From Promethearchaeota archaeon (GTDB lineage Archaea; Asgardarchaeota; Lokiarchaeia; Sigyniarchaeales; SOKP01), in contig JAHPZE010000011.1 of the NCBI GenBank assembly GCA_019058365.1, forward strand, positions 60,921 to 124,920: a stretch of DNA of 64,000 bases, given 5' to 3'. The notes beneath the pieces were generated by a model, which was not told the origin of the DNA, did no database searches, and saw only the letters and a program-made list of their open reading frames with translations. How positions within the stretch are numbered: position 1 is the first letter of the stretch; each line of letters opens with the position of its first letter. A program made the position numbers and the translations under genes. Shown piece by piece: positions 21,167 through 27,226 of this stretch.

Positions 21167-21733
21167 ATGAAAGTTGTATTATTTAATGGAAGTCCAAGAA
21201 AAGAGGGCAATACATATCATTGCTTAAATGTAGTGATGGATGAATTGAAAGCTGCTGGAATTGAATGTGATTATAACTGGATTGGAATGGAAAAATTACA
21301 AGGTTGTACTGCTTGCATGAAATGTACAGAAAATGATGATCAGAGGTGTGTATTGAAAGGGGATAAAATGAATGAATATATAGAAAAAATGTTAAATTCT
21401 GATGGAATCATTATTGGTTCCCCTACATATTTTTCAGATTTATCAACAAGCACAAAAGCTTTAATAGAACGTGCCGGATATGCAACTGGAGGACATTTGA
21501 AGCATAAGGTAGGTGCAGCAGTAGTCGCTGTTAGGAGAGCTGGCGCAAATCACGTATTTTCTAGCATTAATTACTTCTTCCTCATTAAACAGATGTTTGT
21601 AGTAGGATCAAGTTATTGGAATGTCGGTTTTGGAAGGCAACCGGGAGAGGTGTTAGAGGACGAAGAGGGTATTAGAACATTTGAAAATTTAGGGAAAAAT
21701 TTTGCTTATTTACTTAAAAAACTTAAATCTTAA
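21167..21733 (+). CDS. Iron-sulfur flavoprotein (Isf)/flavodoxin-fold FMN reductase
   Basis: GSPRKEGNT, CTACMKC...C, GSPTYF. Confidence 0.9.
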   Translation: MKVVLFNGSPRKEGNTYHCLNVVMDELKAAGIECDYNWIGMEKLQGCTACMKCTENDDQRCVLKGDKMNEYIEKMLNSDGIIIGSPTYFSDLSTSTKALIERAGYATGGHLKHKVGAAVVAVRRAGANHVFSSINYFFLIKQMFVVGSSYWNVGFGRQPGEVLEDEEGIRTFENLGKNFAYLLKKLKS

Positions 21734-21762: not shown

Positions 21763-21969
21763 TATGGAAAATATAGCCTTAAATTTAATAATGCTGAAAG
21801 AATGCTTATTAGTAAAGCTCTGGCTTTTATGAAACGCAATAATATTAATTACTTTTACTTAAGTTTTTTATTGCCTGAAAAAGCTTATACACAAAAAGAT
21901 GTTGAAAATATTTTAAACCTGATAGAAAGAAATATCTTTCAATTAAAAGAAGTAGAAGCCTTAAAATAA
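21763..21969 (+). pseudogene. 3' remnant of a longin/winged-helix-type gene
   Basis: Open frame ...ERMLISKALAFMKRNNINYFYLSFLL...ILNLIERNIFQ resembles KKAIIDFAKELLASKTFFFIINL...VYNLIEKNIILP in 47963-49336; no 5' part. Confidence 0.5.
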
Positions 21970-21990: not shown

Positions 21991-22596
21991 TTATTCAGGT
22001 TTTTTTCCCTTTCTCCAATAAGCAAAGTATACAATTAGTAAGATTATTGCTGCTGGAATTCCGATATATATTAAGAGCCACATAATTGTTAAGAACCATG
22101 CATATATCCAATAAGAATAAGGTTCACTACCAAAAGGAGCGTTGTAATGTCCATCAAAAGCAAGATAAATACAATAAAATATTAACATAAAGAAACCAAA
22201 ACCACCACCGCCCCCATATTCTTTTTTTCTATGGGTTTTTTTCTTCTCTCTGTCTTTGAAAAACTGTTTTTTTTCGGGAGCTAAACTACGCCACCATAAA
22301 TAACCTCCTAAACCAAAAAACAATCCTGCTGGAACACCCACAAATAAAAGTTCCCATAAAATTAGAAGGATAATAAAACCTACGACCCAATTCATCCTCC
22401 ATTCGCCAATTAAAGCAGCACCTTGTCTTCCAAGTGGGGTTGTTTCAATAAACCAAAACAAAACAAGAAGAGCTCCGATGATAGCACAAATACCGGCAAT
22501 AATTACTACTACAAGTGGTATCCGATAATCTCTCCAAATTCCTTTCCAAAATTGCTTTTCACTTAATTCATCACTATTTTCCATAAAGATTACCAA
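21991..22596 (-). CDS. Membrane protein, unknown function
   Basis: Four hydrophobic segments in two similar halves joined by a basic/Gly-rich linker. Confidence 0.7.
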   Translation of the reverse strand: MVIFMENSDELSEKQFWKGIWRDYRIPLVVVIIAGICAIIGALLVLFWFIETTPLGRQGAALIGEWRMNWVVGFIILLILWELLFVGVPAGLFFGLGGYLWWRSLAPEKKQFFKDREKKKTHRKKEYGGGGGFGFFMLIFYCIYLAFDGHYNAPFGSEPYSYWIYAWFLTIMWLLIYIGIPAAIILLIVYFAYWRKGKKPE

Positions 22597-22737
22597 TTTT
22601 TTTTGTTAAAATTTTGTATAAGATATAAAGAGAAGTATTTAAAATTAACTAGCATTTATTATTGAATGGTTTTATAAACTTATTCAGAAGCACAAAAAAT
22701 ATAAGAAAAAAGAACTATTAAAATTATAAGGATATAA

Positions 22738-22757
22738 ATTATTAAGAACCTAACTAA
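22738..22757. promoter_or_regulatory. Degenerate operator copy upstream of marR
   Basis: ATTATTAAGAACCTAACTAA matches the palindrome at 23319 in 15 of 20 positions. Confidence 0.55.
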
Positions 22758-22760
22758 GAT

Positions 22761-23237
22761 TTGATAATAATGGATGATAAGAATTCTTCAAAATCTTTAG
22801 ATATTTATTGTCAACCAGAAGATATTGTTGAAGTTTTTGAACTTATTAACACATTAAATAAAAAATATGAAAAAATACAACGTGAAAATATACAACAATT
22901 GGAGCTTACACCTACACAACATCTAATACTAAGAGAATTATGGAGATCTGATGGTCAACAATTTAAAAATTTAGCGGAAACATGTAATTGTTCTAGATCC
23001 ACAATTACAGGTGTAGTAGACACAATGGAGAAGAACGATTTGGTATCTCGTGACTCACATCCTAACGATAGAAGAAGCTTGCTGGTTAGACTTACAAAAA
23101 AGGGAAAGGACTTAAGAACTAAAACACCTCGATTAGAATCAATGGTAAATGGATGTTGTCCTGGAATCAATGAGGAAGAAATAAAAAAATTAGGAGAATT
23201 ACTCCAAAAACTACTGAATTCACTAACTTCTTTATGA
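22761..23237 (+). CDS. MarR-family regulator with CxC and CC motifs
   Basis: LTPTQHLIL, TCNCSRSTITGVVDTME, DRRSLLVRLTKKG, NGCCPG. Start is likely the ATG at 22770. Confidence 0.92.
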   Translation: MIIMDDKNSSKSLDIYCQPEDIVEVFELINTLNKKYEKIQRENIQQLELTPTQHLILRELWRSDGQQFKNLAETCNCSRSTITGVVDTMEKNDLVSRDSHPNDRRSLLVRLTKKGKDLRTKTPRLESMVNGCCPGINEEEIKKLGELLQKLLNSLTSL

Positions 23238-23280
23238 AATTATTAAATCTTCATTCAATTTTGATTCTTTTTTTAATATT

Positions 23281-23348
23281 TTTGTTAGGATCTTAATTAT
23301 ACGAAACAAAACTTTTATATAGTTAGGATCCTAACTATCACCTAACTA
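23281..23348. promoter_or_regulatory. Operator array overlapping a TATA box
   Basis: Perfect palindrome ATAGTTAGGATCCTAACTAT at 23319-23338; 16/20 copy at 23281-23300; half-site CCTAACTA at 23341-23348; TTTATATA at 23314-23321. Confidence 0.75.
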
Positions 23349-23379
23349 ATTAAAAATGTTATTGAGGTTATAATTACAA

Positions 23380-23478
23380 ATGAGAGATAAAAATGAAAAA
23401 TGTTGTTCTGAAGGATGTTGTGGTGAAGAGACTAAAAGTGTAAAAGAAGAAATTCAGTCAAAAGAAAGATGTTGTTAA
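23380..23478 (+). CDS. 32-aa peptide with three vicinal Cys pairs (metallothionein/metallochaperone-like; not in ORF track)
   Basis: MRDKNEKCCSEGCCGEETKSVKEEIQSKERCC; GAGGT upstream; first ORF after the operator. Confidence 0.75.
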   Translation: MRDKNEKCCSEGCCGEETKSVKEEIQSKERCC

Positions 23479-23666
23479 AGCGACAATACGATGTTTAAAT
23501 CAAATCTAATTTAAAAATTATAGATCAAAATTTTTATTTTTTTAAGTTTTATTTCAAAAAAAAAATACAGATTGGATAAAACTGTTAGTGATTAGAATTT
23601 GTTGAAAAAATGCAATCCAAAAATCGTTTTATACTATTTGTAAAATAATCAATTAACAAAATTAAT

Positions 23667-24293
23667 ATGGAGTTTAAAAAAATGAATGTACTGGGTATAG
23701 CAGGGACTCCTAGAAAGCAAGGGAATAGTGAAATCCTCTTAAGATATGCTTTAAAACCATTTAAAAATAATGGATGGGATATTAAAATTTTTCTTTTAAG
23801 TGCATTAACAATAAAACCTTGTAATGCCTGCGACTCATGCAAGAAAACTGGTACCTGTATTATTAATGATGATATGCAAGGGATTTACGATGCATTTCAA
23901 AGGTGTAATGCGATTATAATCTCAAGTCCTGTTTATTACCTAAATGTTAATGCTCAATTACTGTCCTTACTTGATAGATACTATGCAGTAAATAGTACAA
24001 AACCTTTAGAAGGGAAAGTAGGTGGAGCTATTGCTGTTGGTAATGGAACAAATGGAGGTCAAACATTAGCTCTTAATGCTATTTACACATGGATGCTCTC
24101 ATGTGGAATAATATGTGTTCCTGGTGTATTAAATGGGGTAAAAGCTGTAGCAGATAAGCCAGGTGATATTTTAAGCCAAAAAAACCAGTTAAAGCAAGCA
24201 GAAATTCTTGGACTTAATATTCTAAAAGTAGCAAAAGAGTTAAAATCCATCACGAGTTTTAATAAATACCCTAAATATAATAAAAAGGTGTGA
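23667..24293 (+). CDS. Iron-sulfur flavoprotein (Isf)/flavodoxin-fold protein
   Basis: GTPRKQGNS, CNACDSC...C, SSPVYY; stop overlaps the next start (GTGA). Confidence 0.9.
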   Translation: MEFKKMNVLGIAGTPRKQGNSEILLRYALKPFKNNGWDIKIFLLSALTIKPCNACDSCKKTGTCIINDDMQGIYDAFQRCNAIIISSPVYYLNVNAQLLSLLDRYYAVNSTKPLEGKVGGAIAVGNGTNGGQTLALNAIYTWMLSCGIICVPGVLNGVKAVADKPGDILSQKNQLKQAEILGLNILKVAKELKSITSFNKYPKYNKKV

Positions 24294-25975
24294 TTAATAT
24301 CGCAGTAGTCTATATGCGAAAGTTGGAATTAGAACCAGAGTCATACGAATCAAATTTCACAGCTCTAACAAAAGGAGCAAATGAGGAAGTACAAGATTGG
24401 ATATTGGGACGAATTAAAGCACAAGAGAAAATTCTAGAAGTAGGCTGTGGAACAGGTATTTTCGCAGCAAAAATGGCTTTAAGAGGAAATGAGGTATTTG
24501 CAATTGATAAAAACCATAGAATGATAACTACTGCAATGAAAAATTACCCTTCTAAATCAGATCTTAAATTGTTATATCAGATAGGCACTATAGATGATCT
24601 ACCAGTTCAGGATAACTCAATAGATATTATTATTAATACATTTATGCTTTCAGAACTTAGGCCCTTTGAACAACAAATTTTTCTTAGAAATGCATGGAAA
24701 GCTTTAAAACCGAATGGTCGAATGATTATAGCAGCAGAATTTATACCTACAGGTTTCTGGAAGCTTTGGTTTAACATAAAACGTTGGTGGTATAAAAAGA
24801 AATTAAGAAGACTTAGAATAGAAAGTACATTTTTAGTGAAGTGGTTCTTTAATTATTTGGAGCCTATTGGTTTTGAAATTTCAACTATAAAAAAGTGGCG
24901 ACATGGATCAATTCAGGTAATTGAATTAAAAAAGAATGACAATTTAGATGAACCTGGGTATTATCGTCCTAAATTAAGAAAAGCTAAAGGCTTTGGTTCT
25001 CAAATGAGTATTTATCGCTGTCTATTTACTGGACAAACTGATCATATACCAATTGAACCAGGTATTTACCAATCTGGTAATCCCAATGAAAATTCTCCTA
25101 TTATTGTGACAGCTAATTATGTTTATACATATATTAAAGTGATGCGTGCTCTTAAAGGAATAGATTCTTGGGTATTATGTTTAGATTCGAGAGGAATAAA
25201 TGTTTGGTGTGCTGCACGAGGAAACAATTTTGGAAATAAGCAATTAATTGAAGCCGTTAAAACTACGGGAATAGCAAATATTACTAATAAAAAGACAATT
25301 ATTGTACCTCAACTCTCAGCAGGAGGAATCGCAACACCGCTGATAAAAGCTGAGGCCCCAGACTTTCCATTTAATGTTGTATATGGTCCTGTATGGGCTA
25401 AATTTTTACCTAAATACTTAGAAGAACGTCCCGCTCGAAAACCTGATAAAATGAAATTAGCAAAATTTACAATATCGCATCGTTTTCGAGCAGAAATTAC
25501 ACATACAACATTTTTACTTCGAAAGATTTTTCTATGGCCCAGTATCGCCATAATTTTATTATTTACAGGTCTAAGTTTTATTAATCCTGTATGGATAACA
25601 CAATTATTGATTGTGGGCGAAATTTGGCTTTGGATAATTATAGCAAATGCGCTTATTGCGATATTTTTTCCCATAACAAAATTTACGAGGAAATTTATCA
25701 ATAAAGGAATCATTTTTGGAGTTATTAATGTTTTATTGTTTGGTGGAATTTCTTGGCTTTTTCATTATTCTCTGTTATCCATTCTTCTGAGTAGTATTTT
25801 TTACTTTTGGTTAGCTTTCTTTTCGACAATGTCATTTAGTGGATATACTATGGCAACAAGTCCTAGAGAAATTCAAGATGAGTATCCTATTTTCAGTAAA
25901 ATTAATATGATTTTATTGATAATAGGTCTTGTTACCAAAATTATTGGGTTCATTTTTTTTAATATTTTAAAATAA
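24290..25975 (+). CDS. Class I SAM methyltransferase fused to an HgcA-like corrinoid protein with C-terminal membrane domain
   Basis: N-terminal ILEVGCGTG and LKPNG. Then IEPGIY..GNP..NSPIIVTANY, GINVWCAARG cap helix, PQLSAGG and YGPV; about 5 TM helices; FSGYTMATS. Confidence 0.88.
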   Translation: MINIAVVYMRKLELEPESYESNFTALTKGANEEVQDWILGRIKAQEKILEVGCGTGIFAAKMALRGNEVFAIDKNHRMITTAMKNYPSKSDLKLLYQIGTIDDLPVQDNSIDIIINTFMLSELRPFEQQIFLRNAWKALKPNGRMIIAAEFIPTGFWKLWFNIKRWWYKKKLRRLRIESTFLVKWFFNYLEPIGFEISTIKKWRHGSIQVIELKKNDNLDEPGYYRPKLRKAKGFGSQMSIYRCLFTGQTDHIPIEPGIYQSGNPNENSPIIVTANYVYTYIKVMRALKGIDSWVLCLDSRGINVWCAARGNNFGNKQLIEAVKTTGIANITNKKTIIVPQLSAGGIATPLIKAEAPDFPFNVVYGPVWAKFLPKYLEERPARKPDKMKLAKFTISHRFRAEITHTTFLLRKIFLWPSIAIILLFTGLSFINPVWITQLLIVGEIWLWIIIANALIAIFFPITKFTRKFINKGIIFGVINVLLFGGISWLFHYSLLSILLSSIFYFWLAFFSTMSFSGYTMATSPREIQDEYPIFSKINMILLIIGLVTKIIGFIFFNILK

Positions 25976-26023
25976 AATAGAATAAATAAAATAAACAAAA
26001 TAATATAATTAGAGATAAAAAAG

Positions 26024-26329
26024 GTGGTAAAAGTAACAGTAAAACCAACCTCAATTAAGATACCGACAGTTCTTCCAAAAATCTCGATAAATCCCGATTT
26101 GTGCACAGGTTGTGGCATATGCGGAGAAGTATGTCCGTTTGGAATACCAAAACCTAATAATGAAGGAAAATTTGAGATGTATGAACCAGAACGCTGTACA
26201 GAATGTTCAGCTTGTAAACGAAATTGCCCGACAATGGCTATCATATTACAAGAACGAAAAGGTTGCGGTTGTTTATGGAATGCACGTGCAGTAGCGAAAA
26301 ATCCACAAATTAATAGTTGTTGTGGATAA
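26024..26329 (+). CDS. HgcB-like 2[4Fe-4S] ferredoxin
   Basis: CTGCGICGEVCP, CTECSACKRNCP, GCGC and C-terminal SCCG; directly follows the hgcA-like gene. Confidence 0.85.
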   Translation: MVKVTVKPTSIKIPTVLPKISINPDLCTGCGICGEVCPFGIPKPNNEGKFEMYEPERCTECSACKRNCPTMAIILQERKGCGCLWNARAVAKNPQINSCCG

Positions 26330-26368: not shown

Positions 26369-27226
26369 TTAATAATCAAACATCTTTCTCTTCTTCTCTT
26401 CAAGAAAGCTTCTTCTAGTCAAGATCTCCATTTCCGCATTTAGCCAACAAAGTTCATCATAAGTACAGCTTGAATTGAAGACTTCCTCTGCCTTTCTCTT
26501 AATATCTTCAATAGAGGGCATATCAAGGTTTATTTTCTGAATTTTTTCAGCTAAAATCCAACATAGTTGGTCGTAAGTATATTCATCTAAAGAAAGATAA
26601 TATGCTGCTTCCCTTATTTGTGTCTTAAAATCTGGCTCTTCTGGTTGTTCTTTTTTCTCTTCAACTTTTTTTTGTTCCTTGGGTTCCATTTCAACTTTCG
26701 CGGGAGGTTGTTCAAACTCAACGAATTTAACAGTTTCAGGAGATTCTTTTAGCTTTTTAGATAGCTCATAGCTTCTATGATCCTTAATTTGTTGAAGCCA
26801 CTCTAATATTGGTGTTTCAATTTTTCTTTCTCTCTCTTCCACAGGTACATTAAATTTAACAGGTTTTATCCTTTCAGAAGGTGTTTTTAATACAAATTCT
26901 GGTCTTCGTTCAACAGTTTTCCCTGGTATTAACCCTCTTTCAAGATCATGCATCATAGCTAAAAAGGAGCCATATTCTCTCTTTTGTTTCATGATCAAGA
27001 TTTTTACTGATCCACCACGTTCTTTATCTATCTTCCGAGCAATTTCAGCAATAATATCCTTTTTTTCTTGAGGTACTTCTAAACCTACCCAAATATAAAT
27101 AGTATTTTTTTCTTCGTCATCAACAAGATATCCATTATTTTCATTAAAAGATAATCTATCTATCTTAATTAATTCGCCCTCATTACTAATATTAAATAGT
27201 TTCATTACACTCTCTCTCATGAACAT
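26369..27226 (-). CDS. Single-domain gelsolin with C-terminal X domain (1DGelX-like actin regulator)
   Basis: Gelsolin-fold YLVDD...IYIWVG...Q.RE...F; acidic linker; two AYYLS..YD.LCW..AE repeats. Confidence 0.8.
   Translation of the reverse strand: MFMRESVMKLFNISNEGELIKIDRLSFNENNGYLVDDEEKNTIYIWVGLEVPQEKKDIIAEIARKIDKERGGSVKILIMKQKREYGSFLAMMHDLERGLIPGKTVERRPEFVLKTPSERIKPVKFNVPVEERERKIETPILEWLQQIKDHRSYELSKKLKESPETVKFVEFEQPPAKVEMEPKEQKKVEEKKEQPEEPDFKTQIREAAYYLSLDEYTYDQLCWILAEKIQKINLDMPSIEDIKRKAEEVFNSSCTYDELCWLNAEMEILTRRSFLEEKKRKMFDY

Follow-up and report, generated by a model that had tools for sequence, protein, structure and literature searches.

The window analyzed here is a 64,000-nucleotide (nt) stretch of contig C26 (positions 60921 to 124920) from a 4.74-Mb genome, the nearest relatives of which are metagenome-assembled genomes (MAGs) of Promethearchaeota (Lokiarchaeia). 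Within it lies a locus of five genes encoding a MarR regulator, a small Cys-rich peptide, an iron-sulfur flavoprotein (Isf), a methyltransferase (MTase) fused to an HgcA-like corrinoid protein, and an HgcB-like ferredoxin. We call the fusion plus the ferredoxin the core, and the MarR gene, its operator, the CC peptide gene, and the optional Isf gene the front module. In labels, G is a genome, C a contig, L a sampled locus, P a protein, and f a family; W is the window locus. The features of the locus are as follows.

22733-22739 and 22741-22754, plus strand: TATA-like box and degenerate operator copy ahead of marR, a layout shared by most MarR loci
22770-23237, plus strand: MarR repressor (ATG start, with a TTG upstream at 22761; PF01047, E = 3e-17)
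23284-23335: promoter/operator region, with an upstream site (23284-23297), a BRE-like element (23302-23311), a TATA-like element (23313-23321), and a palindrome (23322-23335)
23380-23478, plus strand: acidic CC peptide of 32 amino acids (aa), with two CC pairs and a terminal CC
23667-24293, plus strand: Isf-type iron-sulfur flavoprotein (PF03358, E = 3e-26; CX2CX2CX5C)
24290-24949, plus strand: CpaM-like class I S-adenosylmethionine (SAM) MTase domain, the N terminus of the fusion (motif I at 24437-24457; basic, Trp-rich helix at 24755-24799)
24950-25975, plus strand: HgcA-like corrinoid-binding domain and five transmembrane helices (cap helix at 25199-25222, with Cys307)
26024-26329, plus strand: HgcB-like 2[4Fe-4S] ferredoxin of 101 aa (GCGC, terminal CC), 48 nt 3' of the fusion gene

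All five open reading frames (ORFs) were confirmed on the plus strand, and Pfam and NCBIfam agree with the identities that an initial annotation, made from the sequence of the window, had assigned to them. The Cys motifs it described were also found, in the regulator (Cys129/130), the CC peptide, and the tail of the ferredoxin (Cys99/100). The fusion protein is 561 aa long (24290-25975). Because a T-rich gap of 188 nt splits the peptide gene from the Isf gene, a single transcript of all five genes is a candidate only. The Isf and fusion genes overlap by GTGA at 24290-24293, where translational coupling had been proposed. This overlap is real and was found also in L011 and L012, but these are only three of the eight measured Isf loci, the other five having gaps of 62 to 218 nt, and conserved coupling was rejected. 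To compare neighborhoods we used 68 chosen (non-random) loci with at least 2.5 kb of upstream sequence; since the sampled loci are kin, counts of loci are counts of non-independent events.

The best NCBIfam family for the MTase domain was CpaM (NF043040; E = 8e-41 over 214 of 216 positions), with scores of 137 to 140 bits, under the cut-off of 180; a distant relative of the fusion, P0135, passes that cut-off with 211 bits. A CpaM is a class I MTase tied to an HgcA-like corrinoid protein, and here the two are fused. Identity with ArsM was rejected: the ArsM model NF008823 gave 49 bits against a cut-off of 263, and the domain is without the catalytic and As-binding Cys motifs of ArsM, its sole conserved Cys being that of motif I. 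In the AF2 model of the fusion (predicted structure; pLDDT 90, pTM 0.86), the MTase domain folds closest to PmtA/Coq5/UbiE-type enzymes (TM score by target, up to 0.75). The top Foldseek match of the fusion was a computed HgcA model (9a0b_A), followed by small-molecule and lipid methyltransferases.

The C-terminal domain has five hydrophobic segments, in agreement with the approximately five transmembrane helices of HgcA, and its cap-helix Cys307, the equivalent of Cys93, is invariant in 50 of 50 homologues and lies within the loose motif N(V/I)WC(A/S). The strict HgcA motif, N(V/I)WCA(A/G)GK, is absent; all 120 of the 120 top homologues have NVWCAARG, with GK changed to RG. Scores were 169 to 171 bits against HgcA (NF040863; cut-off, 275) and 174 to 175 bits against the HgcAB-like family (NF043039; cut-off, 285), the ferredoxin here being a separate gene and not a C-terminal fusion. 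In trees, a 100/100 branch has 22 canonical-motif HgcA sequences on one side, and the Asgard fusion falls outside them, beside the HgcAB-like group. The HgcA phylogeny that had been suggested as a check thus places the fusion outside the canonical HgcA clade. The monophyly of all Asgard MTase fusions is weakly supported (74/84). The linker that joins the MTase domain to the corrinoid domain has a Cys, encoded at 25013-25027, that is kept in 48 of 50 homologues and is a possible extra metalloid ligand.

The Cys residues of the ferredoxin comprise two clusters (27/30/33/37 and 58/61/64/68), Cys81 (the equivalent of Cys73), an extra Cys83, and the terminal Cys99/100. The features by which HgcB is recognized (PMC7305189), which are two CxxCxxCxxxCP motifs, a Cys about 13 residues past the last cluster Cys, a terminal Cys, and a position next to hgcA, are all present, although the score against HgcB (NF040864) was 53.5 bits, under the cut-off of 99. 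The same paper sets out the types of Cys residue required for HgcAB catalysis, and every one of these positions is kept in the window pair. Both GCGC and the terminal Cys pair are invariant in the ferredoxins of nearly all relatives, and clustering put a ferredoxin after the fusion in 62 of the 68 loci, with a few more found by tblastn or lost at contig ends. The ferredoxin is predicted to dock on the cap helix and transmembrane region of the fusion, with a score of 0.74 versus 0.00 for the best control; the mark applied was reached by 58 of 80 solved and 2 of 110 mismatched pairs. The runs agree in at least 93% of contacts, and the pLDDT of the partner is at least 75. Because a computed HgcAB model is in the PDB, this pass may reflect likeness only.

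One explanation of these genes is that they encode a functional mercury methylase, an Asgard HgcAB with methylmercury as its main product and ars genes nearby through shared thiol-metal regulation. It would account for the retention of the cap-helix Cys, the five transmembrane helices, the Cys73 equivalent, and the terminal Cys, for the passage through the loose N(V/I)WC(A/S) filter of PMC10083202, and for the top structural match. We nevertheless consider it improbable. The canonical clade excludes the fusion, which falls with the fused HgcAB-like group, whose member from P. furiosus fails to methylate Hg (PMC10083202); RG stands in place of GK throughout the top homologues; both proteins score below their HgcA and HgcB cut-offs; and near-core retention in a whole family would be hard to explain by trace Hg.

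The fusion is widespread. Of the 134 genomes belonging to the window's Lokiarchaeia family, about 98 have a match to it (103 minus five that are weak and are probably the paralog described below), and full-length forms with 29 to 36% identity occur in families f16 and f31. The MTase is attached in all sampled Asgard groups, with motif I intact. The window's own genome has a paralog on C48 of G000 (L040:624-3691, minus strand) in which CpaM and an HgcAB-like protein are split and score above both NCBIfam cut-offs, and P0235 (L102:1104-2879) is a natural triple fusion of MTase, HgcA-like domain, and ferredoxin that is above the NF043039 and NF043040 cut-offs. Because the modules are thus joined in three ways, MT|AB in the paralog, MT-A|B in the window, and MT-A-B in P0235, the MTase, the corrinoid/transmembrane domain, and the ferredoxin appear to be one functional unit. 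The known CpaM plus HgcAB-like pair has the same three modules; the joint has moved, from a free MT and an AB fusion to an MT-A fusion and a free B. Unlike the paralog, the window ferredoxin keeps the Cys-rich HgcB-type tail, and its context is ars/MarR rather than a transporter and a nitroreductase. The C48 paralog itself has the cap helix NVWCGACG and no Cys tail, and it sits between a ZIP/ZupT-like transporter gene and a gene of the F420-dependent nitroreductase family. Another MTase-HgcA-like fusion, P0256 (L103:5001-6830; cap helix NVWCAASE, with a ferredoxin), occupies a separate branch next to canonical HgcA and is possibly an independent fusion.

A MarR gene was present in 18 of the 68 loci, and the full five-gene set in only seven, of which one includes an additional gene and two lose just the ferredoxin to a contig end. 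The commoner neighbor within 4.5 kb was ArsR (29 loci), followed by Acr3 (19), DUF166 (9), ArsC (5), and ArsM (2); MarR and ArsR were never found together at any locus. The gene just before the fusion is acr3 in families f1 and f3 (gaps of -11 to 55 nt), and in four f31 loci arsR lies 2 to 5 nt before it. No merA/merB-type gene was recognized among the recurrent neighbors classified. The MarR-operator-peptide unit, with or without Isf, occurs without the core in ten loci (L082 to L091); two genomes with a core-free front module carry the core elsewhere under ArsR (L064 and L075); and in L001 and L012 the peptide, Isf, and core are under ArsR, with no palindrome. The five genes are therefore two separable modules with a swapped regulator, and the initial annotation's conserved, self-contained five-gene pathway was rejected, given also that ArsR is the regulator in most relatives and that the peptide is confined to one subclade.

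The window genome has an ArsR-acr3-c10-c12 cluster at C34:288185-292393 without the core pair; because acr3 is directly followed by c10, the pair is absent from its usual slot there. The simplest reading of these arrangements is a relocation of the core, with a proposed direction from an ArsR-acr3 cluster to the MarR module. The two small genes of such ars clusters (C34:288185-292393; L024:9025-9673) encode c10, which has a CxC motif and is possibly thioredoxin-like, and c12, which often has a Gly-Cys end and is sometimes duplicated; neither had a Pfam or NCBIfam match.

The core is near-universal in family f1, and distant loci are without ars neighbors. Together with the PmtA/Coq5/UbiE-type fold of the MTase domain and its basic, Trp-rich helix, which is suited to membrane binding, this distribution could indicate a membrane-associated biosynthetic methylase that acts on a substrate resembling a lipid or a quinone, perhaps the precursor of an arsenolipid, and for which the metalloid regulators would be stress switches only. 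We regard such an enzyme as a poor bet: the invariant GCGC and terminal Cys residues of nearly all the ferredoxins fit a thiol-bound metalloid, and the same genes have come under two unrelated regulators that are both Cys-rich.

Five Cys residues of the MarR protein (14, 72, 74, 129, and 130) are invariant in 19 of 19 sequences. The palindrome GTTAGGATCCTAAC, 14 bp and perfect at 23322-23335, is unique in the 4.74-Mb genome; weaker copies lie at 23284-23297 (two mismatches) and 22741-22754 (three mismatches). The initial annotation had remarked on this repetition, but within the window alone the number of three-mismatch palindromes was not above chance (6 versus 2.7 ± 1.7). Because these window statistics are not significant, support for an operator comes from co-variation across genomes: with two or fewer mismatches allowed, the palindrome was found in 17 of the 18 MarR loci versus 0 of the 50 others. 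A conserved BRE/TATA-like element directly precedes the palindrome, a second site lies upstream, and the degenerate copy follows the TATA box of marR; this layout suits a repressor. That the palindrome is the MarR operator is thus supported, and autoregulation through the degenerate copy is likely. A relaxed genome scan for TATA box plus operator gave six further weak sites, and no wider regulon is claimed.

The 18th MarR locus, L027, has the variant GTTCGGATCCGAAA, changed on both sides and placed directly before arsM, and the same variant precedes arsM in L093, L095, and L097. L027 also has MarR, arsM, DUF166, fusion, and ferredoxin genes in one row. MarRs of a sister subfamily (46 to 59% identity) adjoin an ArsM above the NF008823 cut-off in 21 of 22 genomes. 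Because of its five invariant Cys residues and the link of its sisters to arsM, the window MarR is most likely a sensor of trivalent metalloids, analogous to but distinct from MarR_ars of Achromobacter As-55 (10.1101/2021.08.12.456183). Both are MarR proteins with conserved Cys residues and links to arsenic genes, but MarR_ars uses Cys 36/37/157 and targets arsV, whereas the MarR described here is archaeal, has Cys 14/72/74/129/130, stands before arsM or the corrinoid module, and has a predicted response to As. In L095, L097, and L100, a second, non-ArsM methyltransferase gene (about 267 aa) lies between MarR and arsM, with the same regulator.

Isf proteins are defined by an FMN_red fold with a compact CX2CX2CX4-7C motif, both of which the 23667-24293 product has. 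They take electrons from ferredoxin and reduce O2 or H2O2, so a protective role fits better than corrinoid reduction, and scavenging of O2 or H2O2 is the more likely function. Isf is optional, accompanying either regulator in 10 of the 68 loci, and its proposed role as the flavin/Fe-S electron supply for Co(I) was unsupported; as a dedicated Co(I) reductant it was rejected. Homologues of the CC peptide, 25 to 38 aa long, occur in about 20 loci with the core and 10 without it. The peptide had no family match in Pfam or NCBIfam; it belongs to the MarR module and is a putative metalloid-binding peptide. A 48-aa CC...CC peptide encoded just 3' of arsM in L098 resembles the Cys-rich N terminus of ArsM, and the window CC peptide may share its origin.

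An HgcAB relative with its own SAM-methyltransferase, placed behind a Cys-rich repressor, suggests B12-based handling of arsenic rather than of mercury. The module of SAM-MTase, corrinoid protein, and ferredoxin in the initial annotation, with a probable link to a soft metalloid, is supported; the annotation had left the substrate as Hg, As, Sb, or something else, and this choice is narrowed toward arsenic. Because the neighborhoods and the MarR family, with sisters flanking arsM, point to arsenic, arsenic is the likely signal, and the locus is probably a member of an arsenic-stress regulon. As for the reaction, methylation of As or Sb mediated by B12, carried out by an arsenic-regulon corrinoid methyl-transfer module, is plausible, with a chance that we put a little short of even.

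The steps of this reaction are modeled on the chemistry of HgcAB, in which SAM methylates the Co(I) form to methyl-Co(III)-thiolate and an acceptor held by thiols then takes up the methyl (PMC11588087); methylcobalamin with thiols methylates As(III) (reviewed in PMC6950371). In this lineage, the module would have left the ArsR-acr3 cluster and come under another thiol-sensing switch, formed by MarR, the operator, the CC peptide, and the optional Isf. Binding of As(III), MAs(III), or Sb(III) to the Cys clusters of MarR would release the operator behind the TATA box. The ferredoxin would reduce the corrinoid to Co(I), and the fused Rossmann domain would bind SAM, the methyl of which would be transferred to Co(I) to give methyl-Co(III), with Cys307 as the ligand. 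From there the methyl would pass to a trivalent metalloid held by Cys81/83/99/100 of the ferredoxin, and the product would leave as a volatile or through Acr3-type efflux. Buffering or delivery of the metalloid would fall to the CC peptide, and protection of the O2-labile cofactors to Isf. Any methylation of Hg would be a side reaction.

Several observations weigh against B12-mediated methylation of arsenic, or against arsenic altogether. As induces hgcAB in P. mercurii ND132, but neither mono- nor dimethylarsenic was detected there, and the knockout of hgcAB did not raise sensitivity to As(III) (10.1101/2022.10.17.512643). The reaction does not follow from ars linkage, as canonical hgcAB too is a frequent neighbor of ars genes (PMC7438021). 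SAM methylates purified HgcAB with no Rossmann partner present (PMC11588087); since HgcAB needs no MTase, the fused domain may do something else. ArsM is present in 48 of the 134 genomes and co-exists with the fusion in many, so the fusion is not a simple replacement for ArsM, an idea that was rejected; the window genome has no ArsM above the cut-off. The loci in f16, f2, f4, f5, and some of f31 have none of the classified ars neighbors, and the Cys positions of the window MarR do not match the Cys36/Cys37/Cys157 triad of MarR_ars.

Some of these points also favor an arsenic-regulon member with other chemistry, in which Co(I) would serve reduction, demethylation, or a thio-arsenic or halomethane reaction and the SAM domain would reactivate oxidized corrinoid, as in MetH. 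The ars context is the same, ND132 gave a presumed thioarsenical instead of methylarsenic and its knockout was sensitive to As(V) (10.1101/2022.10.17.512643), dechlorination of CCl4 by HgcAB has been reported (10.64898/2026.04.26.720869), and methylation is already covered by ArsM in a third of the family. On the other hand, every sampled Asgard group has the MTase obligately attached and its motif I intact. Class I MTases do not readily run methyl transfer in reverse. On balance we judge such chemistry unlikely.

Arsenic methylation through B12 has a stronger form, in which the pair is a dedicated cobalamin-dependent As/Sb methylase, a second route independent of ArsM, under an undescribed archaeal As-sensing subfamily of MarR, and preserves the original job of the HgcAB superfamily. 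We offer it tentatively and with some doubt. If true, it would be a second enzymatic route to methylarsenic, and Hg methylation would be a by-product of that original job.

The window pair shares with HgcA/HgcB of P. mercurii ND132 (NF040863/NF040864) a corrinoid domain with a cap-helix Cys, five transmembrane helices, an adjacent 2[4Fe-4S] ferredoxin with Cys73-type and terminal Cys residues, frequent ArsR/ars linkage, and, by analogy, the SAM donor. It differs in its N-terminal Rossmann MTase, in a cap helix ending in ARG-N rather than AGK, in the extra Cys of the ferredoxin (GCGC), and in its scores below both cut-offs and position outside the canonical clade. The locus would thus be HgcAB-like in its working, yet it fails the tests of HgcA membership (strict motif, cut-off, and clade). 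With ArsM (NF008823) the module has in common a SAM-dependent class I fold, the regulators ArsR and this MarR family, and the neighbors Acr3, ArsC, and DUF166; whereas ArsM transfers methyl directly to enzyme-bound As, the module would send it via cobalt. Asgard hgcA-like sequences from Loki- and Thorarchaeota had been seen to group with fused HgcAB, away from canonical HgcA, as here, with no mention of an N-terminal MTase, placement in ars operons, or a MarR operator (PMC10083202).

Already known, therefore, are HgcAB and its ars linkage (PMC7438021; 10.1101/2022.10.17.512643), a MarR upstream of a few bacterial hgcA genes (PMC10349881), Asgard hgcA-like genes, and the CpaM/HgcAB-like pairing in NCBIfam. 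The full architecture, which the initial annotation had supposed to be new, was not found in the literature compared; Zhang et al. 2023 (Asgard hgcA) lies outside that comparison and probably includes members of the family. With that scope, three things are new: the regulator swap, a MarR subfamily linked to arsM together with its operator, and the occurrence of an MT-A fusion with free B as an ars gene that is near-core in Asgard archaea. The native role of HgcAB is a long-standing question in which arsenic is a leading suspect, and here an Asgard clade keeps an HgcAB-like pair in ars operons or under an arsM-linked MarR. Where sediment surveys count Asgard hgcA matches as potential mercury methylators, the label may be wrong. 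The locus offers a compact, testable enzyme with its own SAM-binding domain and a defined predicted operator, and the system is testable because the cultured Ca. L. ossiferum carries ArsR-acr3-fusion-ferredoxin.

Around the locus, a second Isf-type flavoprotein, of another subgroup, is encoded 1 kb upstream (21167-21733), a position kept in some relatives. It is followed by a 55-aa ORF (21802-21969) that shares about 80% identity with the end of a gene of 770 aa placed there in relatives and is probably a remnant. A divergent 201-aa membrane protein (21991-22596, minus strand), whose relatives form an unnamed archaeal family, marks the site of the MarR module and core; it was rejected as a part of the system because it is present without the core too (L082). 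Downstream, and convergent with the ferredoxin gene, a gelsolin-repeat protein (26369-27226, minus strand; weak PF00626), a typical Asgard eukaryotic-signature gene, is syntenic in the genus.

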